IMG/VR virus record: IMGVR_UViG_2823670853_000004
Span: 1 to 23,939 of that record
Length of the DNA stretch: 23,939 nucleotides
Strand: one strand, 5' to 3'
Source of the DNA: a virus
Taxonomy: Duplodnaviria; Heunggongvirae; Uroviricota; Caudoviricetes
Within the stretch, counting starts at the first letter, position 1. Every line of letters begins with the position of its first letter. Both the position numbers and the translations under genes were made by a program. The notes beneath the pieces are model-generated. The model saw only the letters and a program-made list of their open reading frames with translations. It did not search any database and had not been told where the DNA came from. This document shows, in pieces, positions 3,023-18,143 of this stretch.

Positions 3023-3597
3023 ACCGGGCCTCCGGTTGTATCGCCGCCTTTCAGGACGCCAGTATGCTGATGCGCATCAACCACGATCCCGTTAGAACCC
3101 ATCGCTCCGCCGCCCTGGGTAACGCCACCATTGATCACCACTTCACTGTTAATGCGCGTGCGGTCAGCCTCCAGTACAAACTCACTGGTTTTCATGGTGA
3201 TGTTGTCAGCGGCCTCAATGACCATTGATTTGATGCCCCTGACATGCCAGCGTCCGGTGGCGGGTTCGTATTCAAACCAGCCACCGTCAGGATGTTCTGT
3301 CACGCAGGCGTCCGCCGACGTCGACGGTGGCGCGAACTGATTCGAATAGATGGCGGGTAACGCAAAGGCGGTTTCCAGATTGCCGCCCAGACTCAGCAGC
3401 ACCACCTGCTCACCTTCCGATGGTCGCCACCATGTGCGGGCATTCCCGGCACGCAGCGTCAGCCAGCTGATCCAGTTAGTTTCAAGCTCGCCCGTTTTCA
3501 CCCGGCAAAGCCAGTTTTCCCGGTCCACTTCGGTGACTACACCTGTGCGGATCAGGTTGGTGATAAGGCGCATGATTTCGGTTAATTGTGCGTTCAT
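3019..3597 (-). CDS. V: Baseplate spike/assembly protein (gpV-like)
   Basis: 192 aa; Gly-rich C-terminus (VINGGVTQGGGAMGSNGIVVDAHQHTGVLKGGDTTGGPV) typical of gpV spike proteins; first gene of a late operon. Confidence 0.8.
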   Translation of the reverse strand: MNAQLTEIMRLITNLIRTGVVTEVDRENWLCRVKTGELETNWISWLTLRAGNARTWWRPSEGEQVVLLSLGGNLETAFALPAIYSNQFAPPSTSADACVTEHPDGGWFEYEPATGRWHVRGIKSMVIEAADNITMKTSEFVLEADRTRINSEVVINGGVTQGGGAMGSNGIVVDAHQHTGVLKGGDTTGGPV

Positions 3598-4789: not shown

Positions 4790-5060
4790 GTTTCAGTTCC
4801 TCGATCCGGTGTTGTCGTTGTCTCAGCAGCGCGCTGGTCTGTTCTGCTTCGGCATAGAGCCGCGCCTGCTCCCGGTTATTGGTTTCAGTCAGAATGGACA
4901 GGCTGATAAGCTGGCTGTTGCTCTTTGCCAGTGCCTGGCTTTTGCTCTGCAGCTCGTCTGCCTGCGTGCTGATGGTCTGGCTGGCATCAGCCAGCCGCCA
5001 CGTCTGCCAGCCCAGTGCCGCCAGTAATAACGCCAGCACAACCAGCAGCAACCGGTTCAT
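4632..5060 (-). CDS. lysB: Rz-like spanin, inner-membrane component (LysB-like)
   Basis: 142 aa; N-terminal TM segment (LLLVVLALLLAALGW) then coiled-coil-like, charged periplasmic region; ATGA overlap with lysA stop. Confidence 0.7.
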   Translation of the reverse strand: MNRLLLVVLALLLAALGWQTWRLADASQTISTQADELQSKSQALAKSNSQLISLSILTETNNREQARLYAEAEQTSALLRQRQHRIEELKRENEDLRRWADTPLPADIIRLRERPTLTGGAAYRQWLSASDAVSAGSGSAAH

Positions 5061-6351: not shown

Positions 6352-6878
6352 CAGATAAGCTCCACTGTGCAGTGCGGCGCATCCTGCACCCGGCTGATGG
6401 CCCAGCGGGCGTCACGCCACAAATCACCGCTGGATTCCGCCAGTTCCTCGCCTCGCTTCACACCGGATGCCGTGGCGTCATAGTCCTGGTATCGTTCGTT
6501 GAGCATGGCGCGTGCCCAGCAGTAAACCGCGTTGAAATAGTGCTGAATGCGCTCACTTTTGCCGTCCAGCTGTTCCGCCGGAACCTCAGCCAGCGACACA
6601 TACCCCAGCATCTGCTGACGTCTGCGAAACTCATACAGCTCTGCGTTGACCTCCGAAATTGCCGACAGCGCAACCTGCTTTAAACGCGGCTGCGTCACCG
6701 TGCCGTCAGTGCGCATGACACTGCGAAATTCCGACAGGTCCACATCAGGCCAGAACGGCGTGTTTCTGATGATTTCCGCCTGTTCCGGTGCCTGTTCTGG
6801 CGCAACAAACTTCATGCTGCTTTCTCCTGAAATAGAGGGCGGTGGACGGGGTTTTGATGTGGCAGTGCCTTTCGCCAC
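6351..6878 (-). CDS. L: Head completion/stabilisation protein (gpL-like)
   Basis: 175 aa, P2 L position downstream of M. Confidence 0.75.
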   Translation of the reverse strand: MAKGTATSKPRPPPSISGESSMKFVAPEQAPEQAEIIRNTPFWPDVDLSEFRSVMRTDGTVTQPRLKQVALSAISEVNAELYEFRRRQQMLGYVSLAEVPAEQLDGKSERIQHYFNAVYCWARAMLNERYQDYDATASGVKRGEELAESSGDLWRDARWAISRVQDAPHCTVELI

Positions 6879-6910: not shown

Positions 6911-7561
6911 TCAGCGGCTGTCATTGCGCAGTCTGCGCTCCAGCTGCTGTTTGTCTTTTTTCACGCCACAGCGGGGATCGAGCTGTAACGCATGGTTGAG
7001 ATGATTAAGGGCGGAAGCCGGGTTGCTTTCACTCAGGACAGCGCCAATCGCTTTATGCAGACGCGCCCGTGACTGGTCCGGCATATCCAGACCGTCTGTC
7101 AGCTCCAGCGTCTGCAGCAACAGATCGGCATCAAAGCCGGTGGCGGCAAGCATTGCGCTCTGCGCCGCGTCTGCCATTTCCTCTGCCAGCACGGTCTGCA
7201 CGTTGCGGTTACCCAGCGGCATCACCCAGCCATGACGCAGGGCATGACGCCCGATCTCCAGCGCCCCGGCATAATCTCCGGCATCAATGCGCCACAGCAT
7301 CACGTACATCAGCACGTCATCCTGTTGAGCGCCTCCGGCAGCCAGAACGCCCTCCGCCCAGGCGGTATATTTCGGCAGCAGCTCCACCTTGATTTCCGCT
7401 TTTTTGACCGTGGACTGAACGCCCTTGAGACGGCGGCGGTCTTCCGCCAGTTGCAGCAGCATCAGGTCATAGCCCGATGCGTGGCGAACACTGCCGCCCT
7501 CGCGGGCGGCCTGTTCAGCCTGAACGCGCAGGCGATGCTGCCGTGCGGGACTCAGGCTCAT
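6911..7561 (-). CDS. M: Terminase small (endonuclease) subunit (gpM-like)
   Basis: 216 aa, Ala/Leu-rich, P2 M position after the capsid gene. Confidence 0.8.
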   Translation of the reverse strand: MSLSPARQHRLRVQAEQAAREGGSVRHASGYDLMLLQLAEDRRRLKGVQSTVKKAEIKVELLPKYTAWAEGVLAAGGAQQDDVLMYVMLWRIDAGDYAGALEIGRHALRHGWVMPLGNRNVQTVLAEEMADAAQSAMLAATGFDADLLLQTLELTDGLDMPDQSRARLHKAIGAVLSESNPASALNHLNHALQLDPRCGVKKDKQQLERRLRNDSR

Positions 7562-7564
7562 GGA

Positions 7565-8623
7565 TTACGCTCCGGTTTCGGCTGCGGCGGCGCTGAAATC
7601 ACCAATCTGGATGTTTTCCACCAGTGCGGCGCAGCGGTAGTCCTCAACCACATAGGCTTCATTAACGGATTCAAAGTTTTCAATCCGGTCACGTTTCGGG
7701 TTGTCGATAACTGAACGGCGGCGGGTGTCTTCCTGCCAGTAGATGGACAGGTTATCCAGACGGGTGATCAGCAGTGCATTCGGCGGGAAGAACGGCGCAC
7801 GCACGGCCTGCAGGCCACCCATGCGTTTCTGACTGATGATCATATCGGCAGCGAGTTTTTCACTGTTTTCCTGCTCTTTGTTGACCAGCGGGAAATACTT
7901 GTCAGACAGCAGTTCACGACCGCAAATCACCACCAGATCGTCATCGTCCTGGTAGACCACGTCGATAAGCTCATTAACGGCATCCATCACCACGGCGTCC
8001 AGGTTGGCATATTCGCCACCTTTACCGACTTTCACCGCGCCCGGTGTGGTTTCACCGCCCGTGGTGGTGCTGCCCATGACGTGATCCGGTGCATCCTCAC
8101 GGATTTTCTGCAGCCAGCCTTTGTTCACATCCTGTAGCAGCGGGTTTTCACTACGGTTGGAGGTTTTCGCACGCTTCACGCCGTTAAAGCCGATCATGAT
8201 GCGGTCCAGTGCCTGACGTTTCACGATGGCGTCACGGATACGCACCTGGAAATCCTGAAACTTCGCCCACAGGTCCAGCTTCGCGTAGGTCAGCACCGTG
8301 TCAAAGTTGGTCTGCTCGCATTTATATTCCACATCGACCATCAGCGTCGGATCGACAGGTTCACGCTCTTTCGCGGTGGTGTCAGTGGTTCCGGCAATGG
8401 TGCTGCCAACACCCAGCCCCAGCAGCTGACCGGACTGCTCAGTCACTGGCGTGACGTTAATCAGCGTCAGGAAAGCGGCGGACTGCTGGATCTGGTCTTC
8501 CAGCGTCTGCTGCACAGACGGCTCCACAGTGAATTTGCTGGACAGTTCTTCAACTGCCACACCGTTCAGACGCGCCAGCTGCTGCAGGTAAGCGTTAAAA
8601 GCAAAGCGGGTATTCTTCTTCAT
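7565..8623 (-). CDS. N: Major capsid protein precursor (gpN-like)
   Basis: 352 aa, P2 gpN-like length and position after scaffold gene O. Confidence 0.9.
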   Translation of the reverse strand: MKKNTRFAFNAYLQQLARLNGVAVEELSSKFTVEPSVQQTLEDQIQQSAAFLTLINVTPVTEQSGQLLGLGVGSTIAGTTDTTAKEREPVDPTLMVDVEYKCEQTNFDTVLTYAKLDLWAKFQDFQVRIRDAIVKRQALDRIMIGFNGVKRAKTSNRSENPLLQDVNKGWLQKIREDAPDHVMGSTTTGGETTPGAVKVGKGGEYANLDAVVMDAVNELIDVVYQDDDDLVVICGRELLSDKYFPLVNKEQENSEKLAADMIISQKRMGGLQAVRAPFFPPNALLITRLDNLSIYWQEDTRRRSVIDNPKRDRIENFESVNEAYVVEDYRCAALVENIQIGDFSAAAAETGA

Positions 8624-8639: not shown

Positions 8640-9473
8640 TCAGCAATTGGTCAGAGTGTCAGCGGGGGCGTTACCGCCTGTTGCACGCTGGCGGTAGTCC
8701 TGGCGGCTGTCTTCATGACTCAGCTTGTCCACCAGTTCGTTAAAGGCGGTTTGCTGTGCCTGCAGGGCAGTCTCCAGCTCAGACAGGCGTTCTTCCTGCT
8801 CAGACAGGGATTTTTCGGTGCGTGCGTTCAGGTTCTGCTGCTCAGTGGCGACCAGCTCCACGGCCTTATGCACATCAGAGAACCGGGCGTCATCGGACTG
8901 CTCTTTTTTGGTAAACAGCGCCGTGACGCGGGCAAACAGGGATGGTTTGTCGTCCTGGATTTCTTCCAGTTCGATCACCGTTTCCTCTGCAGCGGTAAAG
9001 AGATTGGCAGGATTCTGCTTGCGGTTTGCCAGCGGGTTATGGGCTGCACTGGCGCTGAATGTCAGCATTTCCGTACCCAGACTGGCAGGGTCATCAGTGG
9101 CAGCCAGGCCGACCAGGTAGGCTTTGCCCGTATCAGCGAACTTCGGGCTGACTTCCATAGAGGTGAATAATTTCTGGCCTTTTTTCACCAGTTCCACCAG
9201 GGACTCCGTTGGCTCAACGTCGGCATACAGCGCCATCTTGCCCGCCAGCGGACCTTCCGTGATTTCTTCAGCAAACAGCGCCGTCACCTTGCCGTAGCGG
9301 TTAAAGGTGCTGTCCGGCAGATAAGACTTGATGTGCTCAAGGTTAATCAGCGCGGTATACACCGCCGGGTTGTAGCTGGCTGCCATCTGTTCCAGCCATT
9401 CACGCTGGATTTCGCGTCCGTCGGTGGTGGCACCTTCCACCCCGATGCGAAAACGCTTTGCTTTCACTGTCAT
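8640..9473 (-). CDS. O: Capsid scaffolding protein (gpO-like)
   Basis: 277 aa; N-terminal FRIGVEGATTDGREI and YLVGLAATDDPASLGTE, acidic coiled-coil C-terminus; divergent from P. Confidence 0.85.
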   Translation of the reverse strand: MTVKAKRFRIGVEGATTDGREIQREWLEQMAASYNPAVYTALINLEHIKSYLPDSTFNRYGKVTALFAEEITEGPLAGKMALYADVEPTESLVELVKKGQKLFTSMEVSPKFADTGKAYLVGLAATDDPASLGTEMLTFSASAAHNPLANRKQNPANLFTAAEETVIELEEIQDDKPSLFARVTALFTKKEQSDDARFSDVHKAVELVATEQQNLNARTEKSLSEQEERLSELETALQAQQTAFNELVDKLSHEDSRQDYRQRATGGNAPADTLTNC

Positions 9474-9551
9474 GAGCCGTGCTCCGTTAGAAAAAACTTA
9501 CTGGAGCCTTATGGTTGCGGTGATGGGGGCAGTGAAACAATGCGCGGTATT

Positions 9552-9569
9552 TGTACCGACAACCACACA
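9552..9569. promoter_or_regulatory. TGT-N12-ACA dyad in the divergent O/P promoter region, candidate late-activator site
   Basis: Exact TGT(accgacaaccac)ACA; centre 55.5 bp upstream of P ATG and 87.5 bp upstream of O ATG. Which promoter it serves cannot be decided from sequence. Confidence 0.4.
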
Positions 9570-9615
9570 AACCGCAGGCGGGGAAAGCCTTCATTCAAGG
9601 CTGTAGGTTTGTGCC

Positions 9616-11382
9616 ATGAACACCACACTGACACCCGCAGATCTCGATCCCCGTCGGCAGGCCATGCTGCTGTACTTTCAGGGATACCGCGTAGCCCGCA
9701 TTGCTGAAATGCTGGGCGAGAAAGTTGCAACCGTTCACAGCTGGAAAAAACGCGACAAGTGGGGTGACTATGGGCCGCTGGATCAGATGCAGCTCACCAC
9801 CGCCGCACGCTACTGCCAGCTCATTATGAAGGAGCACAAAGAAGGGAAAGATTTCAAAGAGATTGACCTGCTGGCGCGCCAGTCGGAGCGCCATGCGCGG
9901 ATCGGCAAGTTTAACAATGGCGGCAACGAAGCCGACTTAAACCCTAACGTCGCCAACCGCAACAAAGGCCCGCGCCGTCAGCCGGAAAAGAACGTTTTCA
10001 CCGATGAACAGATTGAGAAGCTGGAAGAAATTTTCCATTCCTCCATGTTCAACTACCAGCGCCACTGGTGGGAAGCCGGAAAAACCAACCGCATCCGCAA
10101 CCTGCTGAAGTCACGCCAGATCGGCGCGACCTTTTACTTTGCCCGTGAAGCCCTGATTGACGCCCTGCTTACCGGACGTAACCAGATTTTCCTTTCTGCC
10201 AGTAAGGCACAGGCTCACGTCTTTAAGCAGTACATCATCGACTTCGCCAAAGAAGTGGAGGTGGAGCTGAAAGGCGATCCGATGGTGCTTCCTAACGGGG
10301 CCACGCTTTACTTCCTCGGCACCAATGCCCGCACGGCCCAGAGTTACCACGGCAACCTGTATCTGGATGAATATTTCTGGATACCAAAATTTCAGGAGCT
10401 GCGCAAAGTGGCTTCCGGTATGGCTATTCACAAGAAATGGCGGCAGACCTATTTTTCCACACCATCCAGCCTGACCCACAGTGCTTATCCGTTCTGGTCC
10501 GGTGCGCTGTTCAACCGTGGGCGCAACAAAGCTGACAAGGTGGACATCGACCTGTCCCACAGCAATCTGGCCCCCGGCCTGCTGTGCGCAGACGGGCAAT
10601 ACCGCCAGATAGTCACCGTGGAAGATGCGGTGCGCGGCGGCTGTAACCTGTTCGACCTCGACCAGCTACGCATGGAGTACAGCCCAGACGAATACCAGAA
10701 CCTGCTGATGTGCGAGTTCGTGGACGATCTCGCGTCCGTGTTCCCGCTCAGCGAACTGCAGGCGTGCATGGTGGACAGTTGGGAAGTCTGGACCGACTTT
10801 CATGCACTGGCCCTGCGCCCGTTTGGCTGGCGCGAGGTGTGGATCGGTTATGACCCGGCAAAAGGTACGCAGAACGGCGACAGTGCCGGATGCGTGGTGG
10901 TGGCTCCGCCAGCCGTGCCGGGCGGTAAGTTCCGCATTCTTGAGCGTCACCAGTGGCGCGGGATGGACTTCCGTGCCCAGGCGGACGCCATCAAAAAACT
11001 GACTGAACAGTACAACGTGACCTATATCGGTATCGACTCGACAGGTGTCGGTCACGGGGTTTATGAGAACGTGAAAGCGTTCTTTCCTGCCGTCCGGGAG
11101 TTTGTCTACAACCCCAACGTTAAAAACGCCCTGGTACTCAAGGCCTACGACATTATCAGCCACCGCCGTCTGGAGTTTGACGCCGGACACACCGACATAG
11201 CGCAGTCCTTTATGGCAATCCGTCGCGCCACCACCGCCAGTGGCAACCGCCCGACCTATGAAGCCAGCCGCAGCGAAGAAGCCAGCCACGCCGATCTGGC
11301 CTGGGCAACGATGCACGCACTGTTTAACGAACCGCTGCAGGGCGAATCCGCCAATACCAGCAATATTGTGGAGATTTTTTGA
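9616..11382 (+). CDS. P: Terminase large (ATPase) subunit (gpP-like)
   Basis: 588 aa; N-terminus MNTTLTPADLDPRRQAMLLYFQGYRVARIAEMLGEKVATVHSWKKRDKW is P2 gpP-like; stop overlaps Q start. Confidence 0.9.
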   Translation: MNTTLTPADLDPRRQAMLLYFQGYRVARIAEMLGEKVATVHSWKKRDKWGDYGPLDQMQLTTAARYCQLIMKEHKEGKDFKEIDLLARQSERHARIGKFNNGGNEADLNPNVANRNKGPRRQPEKNVFTDEQIEKLEEIFHSSMFNYQRHWWEAGKTNRIRNLLKSRQIGATFYFAREALIDALLTGRNQIFLSASKAQAHVFKQYIIDFAKEVEVELKGDPMVLPNGATLYFLGTNARTAQSYHGNLYLDEYFWIPKFQELRKVASGMAIHKKWRQTYFSTPSSLTHSAYPFWSGALFNRGRNKADKVDIDLSHSNLAPGLLCADGQYRQIVTVEDAVRGGCNLFDLDQLRMEYSPDEYQNLLMCEFVDDLASVFPLSELQACMVDSWEVWTDFHALALRPFGWREVWIGYDPAKGTQNGDSAGCVVVAPPAVPGGKFRILERHQWRGMDFRAQADAIKKLTEQYNVTYIGIDSTGVGHGVYENVKAFFPAVREFVYNPNVKNALVLKAYDIISHRRLEFDAGHTDIAQSFMAIRRATTASGNRPTYEASRSEEASHADLAWATMHALFNEPLQGESANTSNIVEIF

Positions 11383-12413
11383 TGGGAAAGAGTAAGAAGA
11401 ACCGAGCTGCGGCGACGAAACAGCTCAAGCATAAAAGCCAAACTTCAGCCGAAGCATTCAGCTTTGGCGATCCCGTTCCTGTTCTGGACCGCCGCGAACT
11501 GCTGGACTATGTGGAATGCGTACAGACAGATCGCTGGTATGAGCCACCAGTAAGCTTTGACGGACTGGCGCGCACCTTCCGCGCTGCCGTGCATCACAGT
11601 TCACCAATTGCGGTGAAATGCAACATTCTGACCAGTACCTACATCCCTCACCCGCTGCTCAGCCAGCAGGCTTTTTCACGTTTTGTGCAGGACTATCTGG
11701 TATTTGGTAACGCCTACCTGGAGAAACGCACGAACCGCTTCGGTGAAGTTATCGCCCTTGATCCTGCTCTGGCAAAATACACCCGACGCGGGTTAGACCT
11801 GGATACCTACTGGTTTGTGCAATACGGTATGACAACCCAGCCGTATCAGTTCACGAAAGGCAGCATTTTTCATCTGATGGAACCGGATATTAATCAGGAG
11901 ATCTACGGCCTGCCCGGCTATCTTTCTGCCATCCCATCCGCTTTGCTCAACGAGTCCGCCACGCTGTTCCGCCGGAAGTATTACATTAACGGTAGTCATG
12001 CAGGCTTCATCATGTACATGACCGATGCCGCGCAGAACCAGGAGGATGTGAACAACCTCCGCAATGCGATGAAAAGCGCCAAAGGCCCTGGCAACTTCCG
12101 CAATCTGTTTATGTACTCGCCTAACGGCAAAAAGGACGGACTTCAGATTATCCCGTTGTCAGAAGTCGCAGCGAAGGATGAGTTTCTGAATATCAAAAAC
12201 GTGAGCCGTGATGACATGATGGCTGCGCACCGCGTGCCGCCACAAATGATGGGGATAATGCCTAGTAATGTCGGGGGGTTTGGGGATGTGGAGAAGGCCG
12301 CGAAGGTTTTTGTAAAAAATGAATTGAAACCACTTCAGCAAAGGCTAATCGAAATTAATAACTGGCTATGTGAGGATGTTATTCTATTCCAAAAATATTC
12401 GTTCAAAGAATAA
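11379..12413 (+). CDS. Q: Portal (capsid vertex) protein (gpQ-like)
   Basis: 344 aa, same length as P2 gpQ; translationally coupled to P. Confidence 0.9.
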   Translation: MMGKSKKNRAAATKQLKHKSQTSAEAFSFGDPVPVLDRRELLDYVECVQTDRWYEPPVSFDGLARTFRAAVHHSSPIAVKCNILTSTYIPHPLLSQQAFSRFVQDYLVFGNAYLEKRTNRFGEVIALDPALAKYTRRGLDLDTYWFVQYGMTTQPYQFTKGSIFHLMEPDINQEIYGLPGYLSAIPSALLNESATLFRRKYYINGSHAGFIMYMTDAAQNQEDVNNLRNAMKSAKGPGNFRNLFMYSPNGKKDGLQIIPLSEVAAKDEFLNIKNVSRDDMMAAHRVPPQMMGIMPSNVGGFGDVEKAAKVFVKNELKPLQQRLIEINNWLCEDVILFQKYSFKE

Positions 12414-12429
12414 CATCCCTCACGTGCAA

Positions 12430-12464
12430 TATAACAAACAAAAAAATTTTGTTTGTTATATTTT
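12430..12464. terminator. Bidirectional hairpin between convergent Q and the GmrSD-like gene; T-run on plus strand
   Basis: Perfect inverted repeat TATAACAAACAAAA (12430-12443), loop AAA, TTTTGTTTGTTATA (12447-12460), followed by TTTT (12461-12464). Stem is AT-rich, so strength is uncertain. The minus-strand stop codon of the GmrSD-like gene (12456-12458) lies inside the right arm. Confidence 0.5.
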
Positions 12465-14039
12465 ACCTGTCATAGCTTTTAAAGCAAGTTCATTTAAATC
12501 CTCTTCGCGCTGGTTTATAAAATCACCATAAGCACTCTTTCCATTCCGTAGATTCGGATGAATCACCGCAGCATCAAAGATCATATCCCTCTCAGCCTCA
12601 TGCACTGTTGGAAAGTACACATCAGGATTCGAATCTGAAATTTGATTATTATCCTGAGCAGTTAAAAATGCAATATTAGCTATTATATTTGACTCATGAA
12701 ATGGAATTCCTTGCCTAGCCAGGTATGCCTTCGGATATATGTGGTGGAATTGTCTTGAATTATATGCTGACAAAGATGTATCAAGGTCAACCACCTTGCC
12801 TGTAATAAAACTCCGTGGAGACAACTGAGCTAACAAGCAAATAGATGCTTTTGCTGCTGAGGAATTAATTCTCCAAGTTTTTCTAAAAAACCCGGTTTCA
12901 ATTTTAGGTACTGGTTGAATATAATCATCTGGAGTACTTATAACGCTATCCATGGCGATAACATCCTCCATAACATAGGTGTTTGTTCCTGCTTTATATC
13001 TTTGCGAAAATGCACAACACCAAAACCATCTTTTAATTGAACTATATTGATAACCCGTTGGGCGAGAGACCTTTGAGAAAAAATAGGTTATAGGTACTAA
13101 CATTATTGGGAATGGTAAAAAAATTGAATTTTTTATTTTTAGATCATTAGCTAAAAAATCAACGGCATTGCGGATACCTCTTTTTAAATCCTCCATTGCG
13201 GATAGAAGAGTTGTTGGATCAATGTCAATCAAAGTATCAGAATCAATCTTCTTATTGATTATTGCCGTCAAACAACGCATCAAAAGAATTTCATCAATCT
13301 GCTCATATCCAACTGACGCAAGATATTCTTTTAATGAATCCATTTCTGTGCGCAAATCAAATTTTTCTGACCATGTCCAAGCCGTTAGCAACTCAATTGT
13401 ACTTAAACTTGTACCAGATGAGTTAATTCTCTGGAATATTCTACAAACTTCTTGATTACTTCTTTCTTTAATCGTAACAATAGGGAACTCATAATCTTTA
13501 AATTTATCAACTAAATTTGCGATTCTATCTTGCTCATCTGCCGGGAATCGTCTTAATTCAGGCAGTAGTTTTGAGGTATCAAGAATACTGCTTAATGCAA
13601 CACTATTTTTTCCTTTTGGTATATCGACAACATTGCAAAAACTATCCGTAGCAGGAATATAATGTATATTAAATCTAGATGCCAAATCACTGTTTTCTGT
13701 TTTCCTGTGGGCATTGAATACTCCAAATAAAGTTGTTAACCGCTGCTGCCCATCCAAAACATAATTAACAGGATAATCTTCTTTCACGTCAGGAAGATGA
13801 AAACCTCCTACATTTCTTTCAAACTTTAACGGTGTCTTTGTTGACCATAATAACAACGAGCCAACAGGGTAACCACTATAAATGGAGTCAATCAAACCTA
13901 ATATCTGCTCATCCGTCCATACGAAATCACGTTGAAACGCAGGAATTTTAATATTTCCACGGGTAACATCATCCAATAAAGATGCTAATCTTTGGTTACC
14001 TGAATCAATCTTTTTCTTAGAGTTTACATTATTTTCCAT
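12456..14039 (-). CDS. DUF262/DUF1524 (GmrSD-family) putative type IV modification-dependent restriction nuclease
   Basis: 527 aa. N-terminal DUF262 motifs IPAFQRDFVW and VLDGQQRLTTLFG; C-terminal DUF1524-type His-Me finger motifs FHHIYPKA and NIAFLTAQDNNQISDSNP. AGGA ribosome-binding site 6 nt upstream. Gene is AT-rich by eye. Confidence 0.8.
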   Translation of the reverse strand: MENNVNSKKKIDSGNQRLASLLDDVTRGNIKIPAFQRDFVWTDEQILGLIDSIYSGYPVGSLLLWSTKTPLKFERNVGGFHLPDVKEDYPVNYVLDGQQRLTTLFGVFNAHRKTENSDLASRFNIHYIPATDSFCNVVDIPKGKNSVALSSILDTSKLLPELRRFPADEQDRIANLVDKFKDYEFPIVTIKERSNQEVCRIFQRINSSGTSLSTIELLTAWTWSEKFDLRTEMDSLKEYLASVGYEQIDEILLMRCLTAIINKKIDSDTLIDIDPTTLLSAMEDLKRGIRNAVDFLANDLKIKNSIFLPFPIMLVPITYFFSKVSRPTGYQYSSIKRWFWCCAFSQRYKAGTNTYVMEDVIAMDSVISTPDDYIQPVPKIETGFFRKTWRINSSAAKASICLLAQLSPRSFITGKVVDLDTSLSAYNSRQFHHIYPKAYLARQGIPFHESNIIANIAFLTAQDNNQISDSNPDVYFPTVHEAERDMIFDAAVIHPNLRNGKSAYGDFINQREEDLNELALKAMTGKI

Positions 14040-14131
14040 TGATATTCCTCACAGGGGTAAATCTATAATAGAATTTCATAAAATCATAACGTTTTCAATT
14101 GCAACATTACAGTTAAACATCCTTGCGCGCG

Positions 14132-14150
14132 CTCGTATCCCCGCCACGCC
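14132..14150 (-). other. Candidate cos cohesive-end site
   Basis: Minus strand reads GGCGTGGCGGGGATACGAG; first 13 nt match the 186/P2 cohesive end as I recall it (GGCG[T/A]GGCGGGGAAAGCA[T/C]). Lies in a short GC-rich segment between two AT-rich cargo genes. Recalled consensus, not verified. Confidence 0.3.
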
Positions 14151-14195
14151 TGCCCGCTTTATGTAGCAGTTTTCATGCACCTGCATGATCTACGC

Positions 14196-14219
14196 AAAAG
14201 CCCGCCAGAACTGGCGGGC
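14196..14219 (-). terminator. Rho-independent terminator for minus-strand transcription from the A-side cargo genes
   Basis: GC-rich inverted repeat GCCCGCCAG/CTGGCGGGC (14200-14219) followed on the minus strand by TTTTG (complement of 14196-14199). Confidence 0.5.
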
Positions 14220-14323
14220 CTTAACACAAAAGATCCTCAAACGATCATGCGATCTCATGCAGCATAGACATGCGCGTTTATGCAGAATGTGCAAAATCGT
14301 AACATACTCAGTAAGCGTGAAAC

Positions 14324-15001
14324 CTAGAACGTGACAGCCTTGTCAAAGCCAGAAATAATTGTATAAGAAATAGACGAGTTATCAGCCTTGTTCACTTTGA
14401 ACTTGGCACCTTTGTAAGCGATAACGTCACTTCCCTTAGAATCTACAGAAAAATCTGTTGTAAATGCTGCACGAGCCATATCGTTTGCAAATTCACGATA
14501 GGTGAACTTCATTACACCGCCTGCATTTCCATTGTATTCGATAGTCTTAACCAATGAGTTACTAACTCGACACAGCCCATCAGGAACACGTTTGATAGAA
14601 ATTTCTGATGCAGTATAAGAAGTACCATTTGGCGGTGATATCTCATTTTTTGCAGCATCGTAACTAACATAATCAACATAGTTACCGATTTGCCCATAGA
14701 GATTTTTTAACGCAACAGCTTGAGGGTTATGATAATTGCGGTAAATTCCATTCCCCTCACTGCAATATGTACCAGCAGCGATAGAAGACAATGCACCATT
14801 AGCCGCACCAAGTTCTAGTACGTCCGTTTTAAATCCAGTAGCAGATGTGATAATGGGATCGCCCATGTAGGCGGTAGCACTTTGCCCAATAGCAGGCTTC
14901 ACCACTTCAATAGCAGTGATATTTCGGTTAGAAGCATGTGGCACGCAACCAGTTAGGATTACAGCAAGAGATATTGGTAACGCTACATTATTAATTTTCA
15001 T
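14324..15001 (-). CDS. Putative lipoprotein of unknown function (about 225 aa precursor)
   Basis: ORF 14324..15055 trimmed to ATG at 15001: MKINNVALPISLAVILTGC has a signal peptide and lipobox (LTGC). Mature part is Ser/Thr/Asn/Gly/Tyr-rich with alternating-hydrophobic beta-strand character, ends in Phe, two Cys. AT-rich. No family recognised. Confidence 0.6.
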   Translation of the reverse strand: MKINNVALPISLAVILTGCVPHASNRNITAIEVVKPAIGQSATAYMGDPIITSATGFKTDVLELGAANGALSSIAAGTYCSEGNGIYRNYHNPQAVALKNLYGQIGNYVDYVSYDAAKNEISPPNGTSYTASEISIKRVPDGLCRVSNSLVKTIEYNGNAGGVMKFTYREFANDMARAAFTTDFSVDSKGSDVIAYKGAKFKVNKADNSSISYTIISGFDKAVTF

Positions 15002-15025
15002 TTTTAGCCTATTATTCTTTTCTTG

Positions 15026-15060
15026 ACAAAAAACAAGGCGATATCTGATTGACATCGCCT
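15026..15060 (-). terminator. Possible weak terminator between the DinI-like gene and the lipoprotein gene
   Basis: Inverted repeat AGGCGAT/ATCGCCT (15036-15060) with an 11-nt loop, followed on the minus strand by TTGTTTTTTG. Loop is long, so weak. Confidence 0.3.
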
Positions 15061-15701: not shown

Positions 15702-18143
15702 TTAATACAGGTTCCGCCACTTATCATCTTCCTGCAAACGCTGGTTCCGATAGAAGATACGCAGGCCTGCTCCTGACGGAATACTGCCGCCGCGAAGGAG
15801 TAAATCGACCTCTTTCTCGCTGCCATCAAATCCTCTGGATTTCAGTTCATAGACGAGATGCTGTCGTTGATGGTCTGTAATTCGCTGTTTGTAGTCTCTA
15901 CGCCGTTTCGGTTTCACCAGACGTAACCTTGCAGCCAGTTCCCGGCGCTCCTTTTTGTTCATACTGTGCAGGTAATCGTGCAACACCTTGTCATCCATGC
16001 GGGTAATGTCCGTTCTGGGGTCCCCATCAGCTGATTTATCTTTCTCCTGTTGGTTCAAATTTTCAGCAAGGGGACAGTTATTGCCACGAGTCCAAGGGGC
16101 GCAAGCGCCCTGGTCGGCTGCCGCCTCCTGAACGTCAACGGCCTTACGAACCATTTTCCACTTCACCGCATGAGTGCAGATCTTGCCCTCTGCAATGGGT
16201 GACCAGATGCCATAAATACGAATACCGTGATCGCCATATGCGGTCGGTTCTTCGTTGATTTCATAAGCAGTTCTGATGAGGTGATATTTGCGGGGAACCA
16301 GTACGCCGCCCTGCTTCATGATGTAGGTGGCAAAACAACCAGCATCAGCAGCAGCCAGGATTGCATCAAGGCGCGGGTTATCCAGTACCGGCGCACCTGC
16401 TTTTTTGTCCCCCTGTTGCCTTGCCGACTGACCAGCCAGCAATCGCAGTTCACGGTAAGCCTGACGCCCCGGAATGCCAAAGAAGCGGAATTGCTGAACA
16501 CGATGCAGAGACGCCCAGGCATTAACGTATTCAGCGTTATCACGCAGGGATTTACCCGTTTCCTTGCTGATCTCGCCAGCCAGACCACGCCCGTCAATGT
16601 TCTTACTGATGTATTTCGCGATGTAGCTTGTTGGCGTACCTTTGCGCGGGTTTATCAGCTCAGACTTAAAGCGTGGTCCCGTGTTATTACCCAGCTCCTC
16701 GCGGTCTTCACGAATGGCAAACTTACGCAACAAAGCAGTAATGGTGCGGCGATCTTTTTTGCGCATAAAACACAACAGGTGCCAGTGAACTGTACCGTCA
16801 TGATGCGGCTCAGCCACCCGCACGCCATACCAGCGCAATCCGGCTTTGTGCATCGCCTTACGAAATGCAGCAAACATGCCGACCAGATAATCACTGCTTT
16901 GTATTACCGTCGTATTTGTCCAGGTCGGGTTGGGCCTGCCGTTATTTAGCGTGGAATGGAAACGTGACGGACAGGTGATGGTGTAGAAAACGGCGCAGTC
17001 ACCGCGCATTTCCGCGATAAGCTCCAGACCTTTAACACAGGCCATCATCTCATTGCGGCGATGCGCAGGGTTGCTGCTGCTGGCGTTTACCACATCCTCC
17101 ATGTCCAGCGTGTCGCCGTCTTCGTTCACCAGTTCATGAGAACGGAAAAACTCCAGCGACTTACGGCGCTGCTCACGTTTATGCATCACGGCTTCATAGC
17201 TGACATAGGGAGATGCTTTTTTGCTGACCAGGCAAACAGCACGCAACTGCTCTTCCCGCCATTCGCAACGCATCTTCCATAATTTCCGGTACCACCAATC
17301 GGCGCACAACATACGCGCCAGCGAACCCGGAATGAGTTCATAGGGCACGGGTTTACGGCGGTTTCTTTTCCGGCGGAGTTGCTCAAACGCAGGCGGTATG
17401 ACATCTAGTCGCAGGGTTTCTGCTGCCACCTTTTCCCATGTCTTGCGGATTTCTTCTGGCTTAACGTCATCGGTGGCATACAAATCGCCACAAGCTGCAT
17501 CAAGGCACATGCTCATATGCGCAGCAACAAGGGTGGACAGGCGTTTCACCTGATCCTGACTCATTTCAGGCAGAATCAGCAGGCCGTCCAGCCCTTCATG
17601 GCTTGCCATAAAGCGAAAAGAAGTGGATAGCTGACTGTCGCGTACATGCTCCAGTCGTTCCAGACATGGCTTAATCGTCTCACGTAAATAGCGGGAATAA
17701 GCCTTTGGCCTGCCCAGGCTGCTGAAGTATTCAATACGTTGCATCAGCGGCTTGCTGATATGGGAGGGCTGGGCGCTGACGTCTGCCAGAATGACCATGT
17801 CCGGGTTAAAACGCTGCTGCTCATGCGCCAACTTTGCCCGGCTAATGAGCTTATCCTGCTCCATTTCGCGCTGGACAGGATCACGGGATTCATTAAAGAA
17901 ATAACGCTCCCAGACCTGATCACTCAGTGCCTCGCGGCGCAGTTGTTCCTGCTCGTTATCGGTAGCGTACAGAGTGATCAGGTTTGAAAGCGCAGAAACC
18001 GGCGCAACTTCCGCCGGGTCCAGATAAGGGTTAATGGCTTTCTTAGGTAAATTCCACGAATAACCCCCGGCAGAATTCTCAATGCTACCGGAAGTTACAC
18101 TGACAAATGGATCGGCAAGACGGCCTGTGCTGATCTCTGTCAC
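15702..18143 (-). CDS. A: Replication initiation protein / rolling-circle endonuclease (gpA-like)
   Basis: 813 aa in the P2 A position, last gene of the early operon; contains a [12 protein letters not shown]-type Rep motif; start overlaps the upstream stop (ATGA). Confidence 0.9.

Follow-up and report, generated by a model that had tools for sequence, protein, structure and literature searches.

The window, by which we mean the whole 23,939-nt stretch of DNA that was analyzed, is an IMG/VR record whose open reading frame (ORF) map and Pfam matches identify it as a P2-family (Peduoviridae) prophage, lying in the orientation opposite to that of the standard P2 map (Table 1). For M, P, Q, O, and A, both the ORF and its Pfam match are full-length; on its terminase matches, the product of gene P is the enzyme expected to nick cos. 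In the O/P region, identity is 100% with Escherichia phages Cartapus (Elveevirus) and 500465-1 and ∼90% with Fels-2, SopEPhi, RE-2010, and SEN8. Positions 12300 to 14400 are 100% identical to chromosomal sequence of the soil isolate E. coli MEI4O1-23. On the A side, a 243-aa ORF (14324-15055, minus strand) gave no Pfam or PADLOC match; its equal length and position had made it a candidate homolog of 186 Orf97, which we rejected (BLASTP E = 4.5). RefSeq places a 225-aa hypothetical protein and then a DinI-like gene in this region. Two short segments of the window resemble the cohesive ends of P2-family phages: site 1, which lies between Q and the A side as the sequence-only reading had stated, and site 2, in the O/P intergenic region.

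Table 1. Coordinates of the genes, the cos module (site 1), and the O/P promoter elements (site 2) in the window
Feature	Position	Strand	Remarks
Gene M, terminase small subunit	6911-7561	-	Pfam Phage_term_smal 2.3e-40; expected cos-recognition subunit
Gene N	7565-8623	-	ORF map/Pfam
Gene O, scaffold	8640-9473	-	ORF map/Pfam
O/P divergent intergenic region	9474-9615		Contains site 2
TGT-N12-ACA dyad TGTACCGACAACCACACA	9552-9569	+	Ogr/B-type late-activator site, divergent O and P promoters
Cos-like 13-mer AGGCGGGGAAAGC (site 2)	9576-9588	+	-40 to -28 of the predicted late P promoter
-10 hexamer TAGGTT of P promoter, predicted	9604-9609	+	Aligns with P2 TAGCCT
Gene P, terminase large subunit	9616-11382	+	Terminase_6N 3e-65, Terminase_6C 1.7e-49, Terminase_5 3.3e-27
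Gene Q, portal	11379-12413	+	Pfam Phage_portal 2.9e-16; RefSeq "phage portal protein"
527-aa DUF262/GmrSD-like cargo gene	12456-14039	-	Pfam GmrSD_N 2.8e-35; PADLOC PDC-M55C 1.6e-64
Whole conserved cos module (site 1)	14125-14275	-	Offsets -125 to +26; 115 unique IMG/VR flanks
55-bp cos core: box 4, 19-mer, and CGCGCGC flank	14125-14179	-	Columns -29 to +26
Q-side flank CGCGCGC	14125-14131	-	Last conserved module bases; 6/7 to P2 and 186, 7/7 to P4
Cohesive-end 19-mer GGCGTGGCGGGGATACGAG	14132-14150	-	Predicted 5' overhang, nicks at both borders by homology
A-side flank AAGCGGGCA	14151-14159	-	Directly 5' of the predicted top-strand nick; near-invariant in the anchored alignment
YGCAT box 4, TGCAT	14175-14179	-	Offset -29
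G+C-rich hairpin and T tract GGCCCGCCAGTTCTGGCGGGCTTTT	14196-14220	-	Between boxes 3 and 4
Distal YGCAT box, CGCAT	14247-14251	-	Offset -101
Distal YGCAT box, TGCAT	14257-14261	-	Offset -111
Distal YGCAT box, CGCAT	14270-14274	-	Offset -124
Replication gene A	15702-18143	-	Pfam

Site 1 had been proposed as a probable cos from its resemblance to the 186/P2 cohesive end, and the annotated records confirm the resemblance: the 13-mer GGCGTGGCGGGGA with which the minus strand begins here (14138-14150) equals the 186 cohesive end, GGCGTGGCGGGGAAAGCAT (NC_001317), over its first 13 nt. The P2 cohesive end, annotated as cosL/cosR, is GGCGAGGCGGGGAAAGCAC (NC_001895). The 13-mer occurs once in the window, where ∼0.0009 occurrences are expected analytically under a first-order Markov model, and its W-degenerate pattern with up to one mismatch has a mean of 0.07 in shuffled sequences. 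Extended to the full GGCGTGGCGGGGATACGAG, the site aligns in an ungapped register with the annotated cohesive ends, with 15/19 positions identical to 186 and 14/19 to P2. Overhang positions 14, 16, 17, and 19 differ, giving ATACGAG here versus AAAGCAT or AAAGCAC in P2/186. As the last six overhang bases are TACGAG and those of 186 are AAGCAT, site 1 represents a Fels-2-type variant and not the 186 sequence itself.

This variant is well represented elsewhere. The identical 19-mer is found in SEN8, Fels-2, Cartapus, and Klebsiella Gega-, Gege-, and Dagavirus phages, all Fels-2-like and spanning five genera, as well as in at least 119 IMG/VR contigs. The resemblance goes beyond the 19-mer: SEN8, Fels-2, RE-2010, and Cartapus (Felsduovirus, Elveevirus) also have the same flanks (AAAGCGGGCA and CGCGCGC), boxes, hairpin, and position, and the window differs from them by a few substitutions in non-conserved module columns. 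The SEN8 record opens with GGCGTGGCGGGGATACGAG, labeled "putative cos site," and the SEN8 genome announcement reports it as the predicted cos (PMC5427200); the same region of the Cartapus record reads "putative cos site, homologous to the cos of P2 phage." Both annotations are worded as putative and are themselves homology based. Kindred variants with the ...ACGAG tail are described for SEN4/SEN5 and Stenotrophomonas phage Smp131 (PMC5261728, PMC3931495). In a degenerate scan of IMG/VR (two scans pooled, the first of which selected this variant), the commonest tail was ...ATACGAG followed by CGCGCG, and the second main tail was ...AAAGCA[C/T] followed by TGCGCG, with ATAGCAT, CTACGAG, and ATACGAT as intermediates. 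Since ...ATACGAG is among the main tails, the variant in the window is a common one and not unusual. Site 1 is, then, an ordinary feature, already annotated by homology in sister phages.

We defined the extent of the module from 115 unique IMG/VR flanks, which, like the sequences of 10 phages, were anchored on the first G of the 19-mer. In this register, the window needs no gap against the reconstructed cos junctions of P2, 186, and the satellite P4, nor against Fels-2, SEN8, Cartapus, and the Klebsiella Gega-, Gege-, and Dagavirus phages. Conservation forms a single block from -125 to +26, and across the 115 unique IMG/VR flanks the information content falls to zero immediately beyond both edges. 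All 68 of the module columns conserved at 95% or more are matched by the window. A profile of the 151 columns, drawn mostly from close relatives of the window, was then scored along the 23.9 kb, and site 1 was the sole positive match at +233.5 bits, with the next best at -171.5. The height of the site 1 score is partly circular because the profile was built largely from relatives; the absence of a second match is not. By the module profile, there is a single cos site within the 23.9-kb window, which bears out the expectation that, of the two candidate sites, only one could be real.

Within the module, P2, 186, P4, and the Fels-2-like clade share a conserved core in columns -29 to +26. Running from box 4 to +26, this core is exactly 55 bp long, the same size as the "55-bp core sequence" of P2-related cos attributed to Ziermann and Calendar (1990) in two later papers (PMC5694545, PMC3931495). 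On the A side, 26 to 30 of the 39 positions from -39 to -1 are identical to P2, 186, and P4, the figure for P2 and 186 being 28 to 30. The two flanks are quasi-symmetric, in that GCGCGCG, the reverse complement of CGCGCGC, mirrors the A-side GCGGGCA, and such a quasi-twofold frame would fit what is expected around two staggered nicks. Site 1 has in common with P2, 186, and P4 the GCGGGCR and YGCGCGC flanks, the offsets of four YGCAT boxes, the position between Q and the A/old side, and a terminase of the gpM/gpP type.

The four boxes are likely terminase recognition elements. GCAT at offset -28, within box 4, is present in 99 to 100% of relatives across all cos variants and also in P2, 186, and P4, and the distal boxes are occupied in 93 to 97% of Fels-2-type sequences and in 48 to 80% of the other variants. 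Box offsets are equal in P2, 186, P4, and the Fels-2-like phages, yet the spacer from -94 to -40 is unrelated, with 11/55 positions identical to P2. P4 has only its cos in common with P2 (PMC9122126). Because the phase of the boxes is conserved and because P4, which shares nothing but cos, is packaged by the P2 terminase, the boxes are the most plausible elements for terminase recognition.

The same spacer contains a hairpin (14196-14220) with a minimum free energy of -21.9 kcal/mol (z = -4.0). It occupies the position of the annotated terminator t95b of 186; both 186 and P4 have hairpins of other sequence at the equal offset, whereas the P2 spacer has none. A simple terminator scan of the window did not call the hairpin, which is explained by its tract of only 4 T. 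Its folding energy and the annotated 186 counterpart lead us to describe it as terminator-like for a minus-strand transcript of the A side.

Altogether, the 151-bp module, ungapped against P2, 186, and P4 and enclosing the 19-mer that SEN8 carries as its putative cos, agrees with the proposal made for site 1, and on the sequence we consider it very probable that 14125-14275 is the functional-type cos of a Peduoviridae prophage of the Fels-2/Elveevirus-like kind and that it is cut in the manner of P2 and 186. The terminase, composed of gpM and gpP, would recognize the module and nick each strand once, at opposite borders of GGCGTGGCGGGGATACGAG, with a stagger of 19 bp. Virion DNA would then have 5' cohesive ends of 19 nt; one end would adjoin the Q-side cargo and Q, and the other would adjoin the A side. 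We infer the cleavage positions, as well as the 5' polarity and length of the overhang, by homology with the P2, 186, and P4 cos sites, for which 19-nt 5' cohesive ends have been defined experimentally.

Two other readings of site 1 accept the homology and depart from this on function. It could be a true cos homolog that is now an unused relic of a defective prophage. The sequence is that of a prophage, and remnants do exist among the relatives, namely, a deletion remnant (L065) and a partial module (L022). However, the window fits the highly conserved module columns without exception, its M, P, Q, O, and A genes are full-length with full-length Pfam matches, and its O/P region is identical throughout to that of Cartapus, which was deposited as a phage genome. 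We therefore regard a relic as quite improbable. Alternatively, the cut geometry could be unlike that of P2 and 186, through displacement of a nick or an overhang length other than 19 nt. Four of the last six overhang bases differ from P2/186, and identical nick positions are therefore assumed here. Overhang positions 14 to 19 and the first flank base are where the differences lie, positions 13 to 19 vary among natural variants, and the last overhang base changes together with the first base of the flank, which shows that the junction evolves. Yet there are no indels relative to P2, 186, and P4 anywhere from -125 to +26, and both quasi-symmetric flanks are kept at equal spacing. P2 and 186 themselves have different 19-mers and the same cut geometry, which also counts against an altered geometry here. 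On balance, we think that such a change is unlikely and continue with a cos cut in the P2/186 manner.

Among loci L021 to L222, the last overhang base and the first Q-side flank base co-vary as G|C or Y|T, with ...CGAG|CGCGCG on the one hand and ...GCA[T/C]|TGCGCG and ...CGAT|TGCGCG on the other. This suggests a constraint that acts across the bottom-strand nick. In the sequence records and literature, including those for ELPhiS/RE-2010 and Fels-2, we found no experimental end mapping of an ATACGAG-type 19-mer, and of the two records considered for physical evidence from their termini, P37 and Midge, neither has the Fels-2-type 19-mer. The P37 record has a P2-type cohesive end at its terminus. 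The linear record of Escherichia phage Midge (PV287706.1; L019/L020) ends with ...GGCGTGGCG and starts with GGGAAAGCAT...; it is broken inside a 186-type 19-mer, and its termini are therefore not physical cohesive ends.

How does this site compare with cos in other phages? The cos of lambda (cosQ-cosN-cosB) offers a similar overall plan, with staggered nicks, partial twofold symmetry, flanking repeats, a two-subunit terminase, and 5' ends. The differences are substantial: there is no sequence homology, the lambda overhang is 12 nt versus 19 nt, and lambda has R sites and an IHF site, not YGCAT boxes. Site 1 is not a member of the lambda cos family. P2, for its part, packages from monomeric circles.

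On the Q side, the module ends abruptly. At 7 bp from the 19-mer, conservation gives way to variable cargo, and the cargo gene at 12456-14039 marks this boundary in the window, which becomes homologous to other E. coli prophages again only from position 14114. A cos-adjacent hotspot between Q and A is known in P2-like phages (PMC9122126, PMC5694545). Of the 120 IMG/VR sites compared, 82 had a Q match, and in 81 of these the gap from cos to Q ranged from 151 to 3538 bp; in the remaining one, a locus with two inverted copies, Q lies on the other side. What occupies the gap beyond +26 differs from phage to phage: GmrSD-like cargo in the window, an HNH endonuclease and a hypothetical protein in SEN8, a 565-aa hypothetical protein in Fels-2, and a DUF4145 protein in Cartapus. 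The GmrSD-like cargo was found at this place in 1 of 5,426 complete E. coli genomes, and none of the 120 IMG/VR cos sites compared has a homolog of it. The 527-aa protein is probably an anti-phage nuclease, and its N-terminus is HEC-05- and SspE-like.

At site 2, the sequence-only reading had pointed to a 13-nt stretch of the P2-family cohesive end in the O/P region; the stretch is present and corresponds to P2 cos positions 5 to 17, but it lies at 9576-9588, not at 9577-9589. AGGCGGGGAAAGC occurs once on the plus strand. The match to the 186 cohesive end is limited to positions 6 to 17 (12 nt), as position 5 of 186 is T. Counting both strands of the whole window, exact identities of at least 13 nt with any part of the P2 or 186 19-mers have an expected number of 0.0125, so that a coincidence of this kind is uncommon but not extreme. 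This exact match, and the conservation of the segment within the clade, are what could be cited for a real or second functional cos.

The surroundings of site 2 say otherwise. The segment agrees with the phage's own cos at 9/13 positions, and the hypothetical 19-mer that could be drawn here (CCGCAGGCGGGGAAAGCCT) agrees with P2 at 13/19. The cos-module profile scores -276.4 at site 2, which is background (rank 2334), and the flank columns score -261.5. Compared with the P2, 186, and P4 cos sites, to which site 1 aligns without gaps, site 2 has no cos flanks: its neighboring sequences CAACCACACAAA and TCATTCAAGG are unrelated to them, and around it there is no GCGGGCR, no YGCGCGC, and no YGCAT box at -29. 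At this place, P2 and 186 lack the 13-mer and have a different sequence. Fels-2, SEN8, and the Gega-, Gege-, and Dagavirus phages read AGCCGGGGAAAG, and another subclade reads AGTCAGGGAAAG; because these other genera differ, the 13-nt identity with cos is lineage specific. Furthermore, two cos sites 4.5 kb apart would leave a cos phage with genome pieces that cannot be packaged. We thus give almost no credence to a second cos, in agreement with the earlier suspicion that a cos would be out of place here.

What lies at site 2 is better explained by the late P promoter, since the segment is placed between the activator site and the -10 of that promoter. The perfect TGT-N12-ACA dyad at 9552-9569 aligns with the P2 feature annotated as "activator binding site; pO, pP promoters" and with the B-protein site of 186. 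As in the Ogr/B/Delta-activated P2 P_P/P_O and 186 p12/pV pairs, the activator site is shared by divergent promoters, and a TAnnnT -10 stands at the aligned position; in P2, the corresponding TAGCCT spans -12 to -7 relative to the annotated start of P transcription. The distance of 55.5 nt from the dyad center to that start in P2 reaches, in the window, the A of the P ATG at 9616, which would place the 13-mer at -40 to -28. The -35 region is CAGGCGGGGAAAG here versus CACCTTAGCGAATC in P2 and 186. From this alignment we infer that site 2, which is not a cos, is a -35-region segment of the activator-dependent late P promoter. Across the clade, the element has the consensus CAG[C/G/T]C[G/A]GGGAAAG, fixed 6 nt after the activator site, and a C-to-G change confined to the sub-lineage of the window has lengthened to 13 nt an identity with P2 cos that otherwise spans 9 nt (CGGGGAAAG) and is due to chance. 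The resemblance to cos is one of chance.

The same alignment bears on the P transcript. The 23-nt leader of P2 and 186 is missing throughout the Fels-2-like clade, and the P mRNA is therefore predicted to be leaderless, its presumptive start being the A of the ATG at 9616. An in-frame TAG (9604-9606) rules out an upstream P start codon.

A further possibility is that the promoter element at 9576-9588 doubles as a regulatory decoy, bound by the terminase or another packaging protein with feedback on P expression. In at least five genera, the GGGAAAG core is conserved amid variable intergenic bases, its spacing from the activator site being constant, and it partially resembles the cos core. However, whichever cos variant is taken, the conserved core has only 7 to 9 nt in common with it, and chance alone would yield ∼3.8 9-mers per window. 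The clade's own cos reads GGGGATAC, not GGGGAAAG, and promoter function at -35 is sufficient to explain the conservation. A decoy is therefore very unlikely. The GGGAAAG element would correspondingly be a long shot as a binding site for the terminase small subunit or a packaging protein that couples P expression to packaging status; if this were true, packaging-protein binding together with a leaderless P mRNA would constitute an unrecognized regulatory layer in Fels-2-like phages.

With site 2 assigned to the P promoter, a false second cos is removed. Assigning site 1 matters little beyond the right annotation, in that it fixes the predicted packaging site and virion ends of the prophage, and it marks the border of the cos-adjacent cargo/defense hotspot, 7 bp beyond the cohesive end. 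The limits of the module, the four phased YGCAT boxes, and the landscape of 19-mer variants may aid the engineering of P2-family cosmids and satellites. These comparative by-products extend known biology and do not change it.

Several of the IMG/VR loci have an unusual arrangement. Among loci with a Fels-2-type cos, there was no clear P4-like satellite, the only ones of note being L022 and L065. In L022 (19-mer at 9352-9370, minus strand), the module is partial, extending only from -75 to +26, with the three distal boxes missing and one flank mismatch. It adjoins a gene for a 554-aa P-loop protein that may be KAP-NTPase-like (by an N-terminal motif only), and the other genes do not seem P2-like and include, by eye, an apparent different terminase pair. 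The cos fragment of L022 may have traveled with a defense cassette. L094 has inverted copies of the 19-mer at 3447-3465 (minus strand) and 6704-6722 (plus strand), 3.2 kb apart, which flank a 406-aa ORF with the appearance of a transposase; outward of the plus-strand copy are cargo and then a confirmed Q homolog. This locus could represent head-to-head prophages, an IS-mediated rearrangement, or a misassembly. In L065 (19-mer at 5000-5018, minus strand), the order is A, cos, two cargo genes, and U-D, with no Q through T morphogenetic genes, and a deletion seems to have reduced a P2-like prophage to this remnant, whose cos module is intact.
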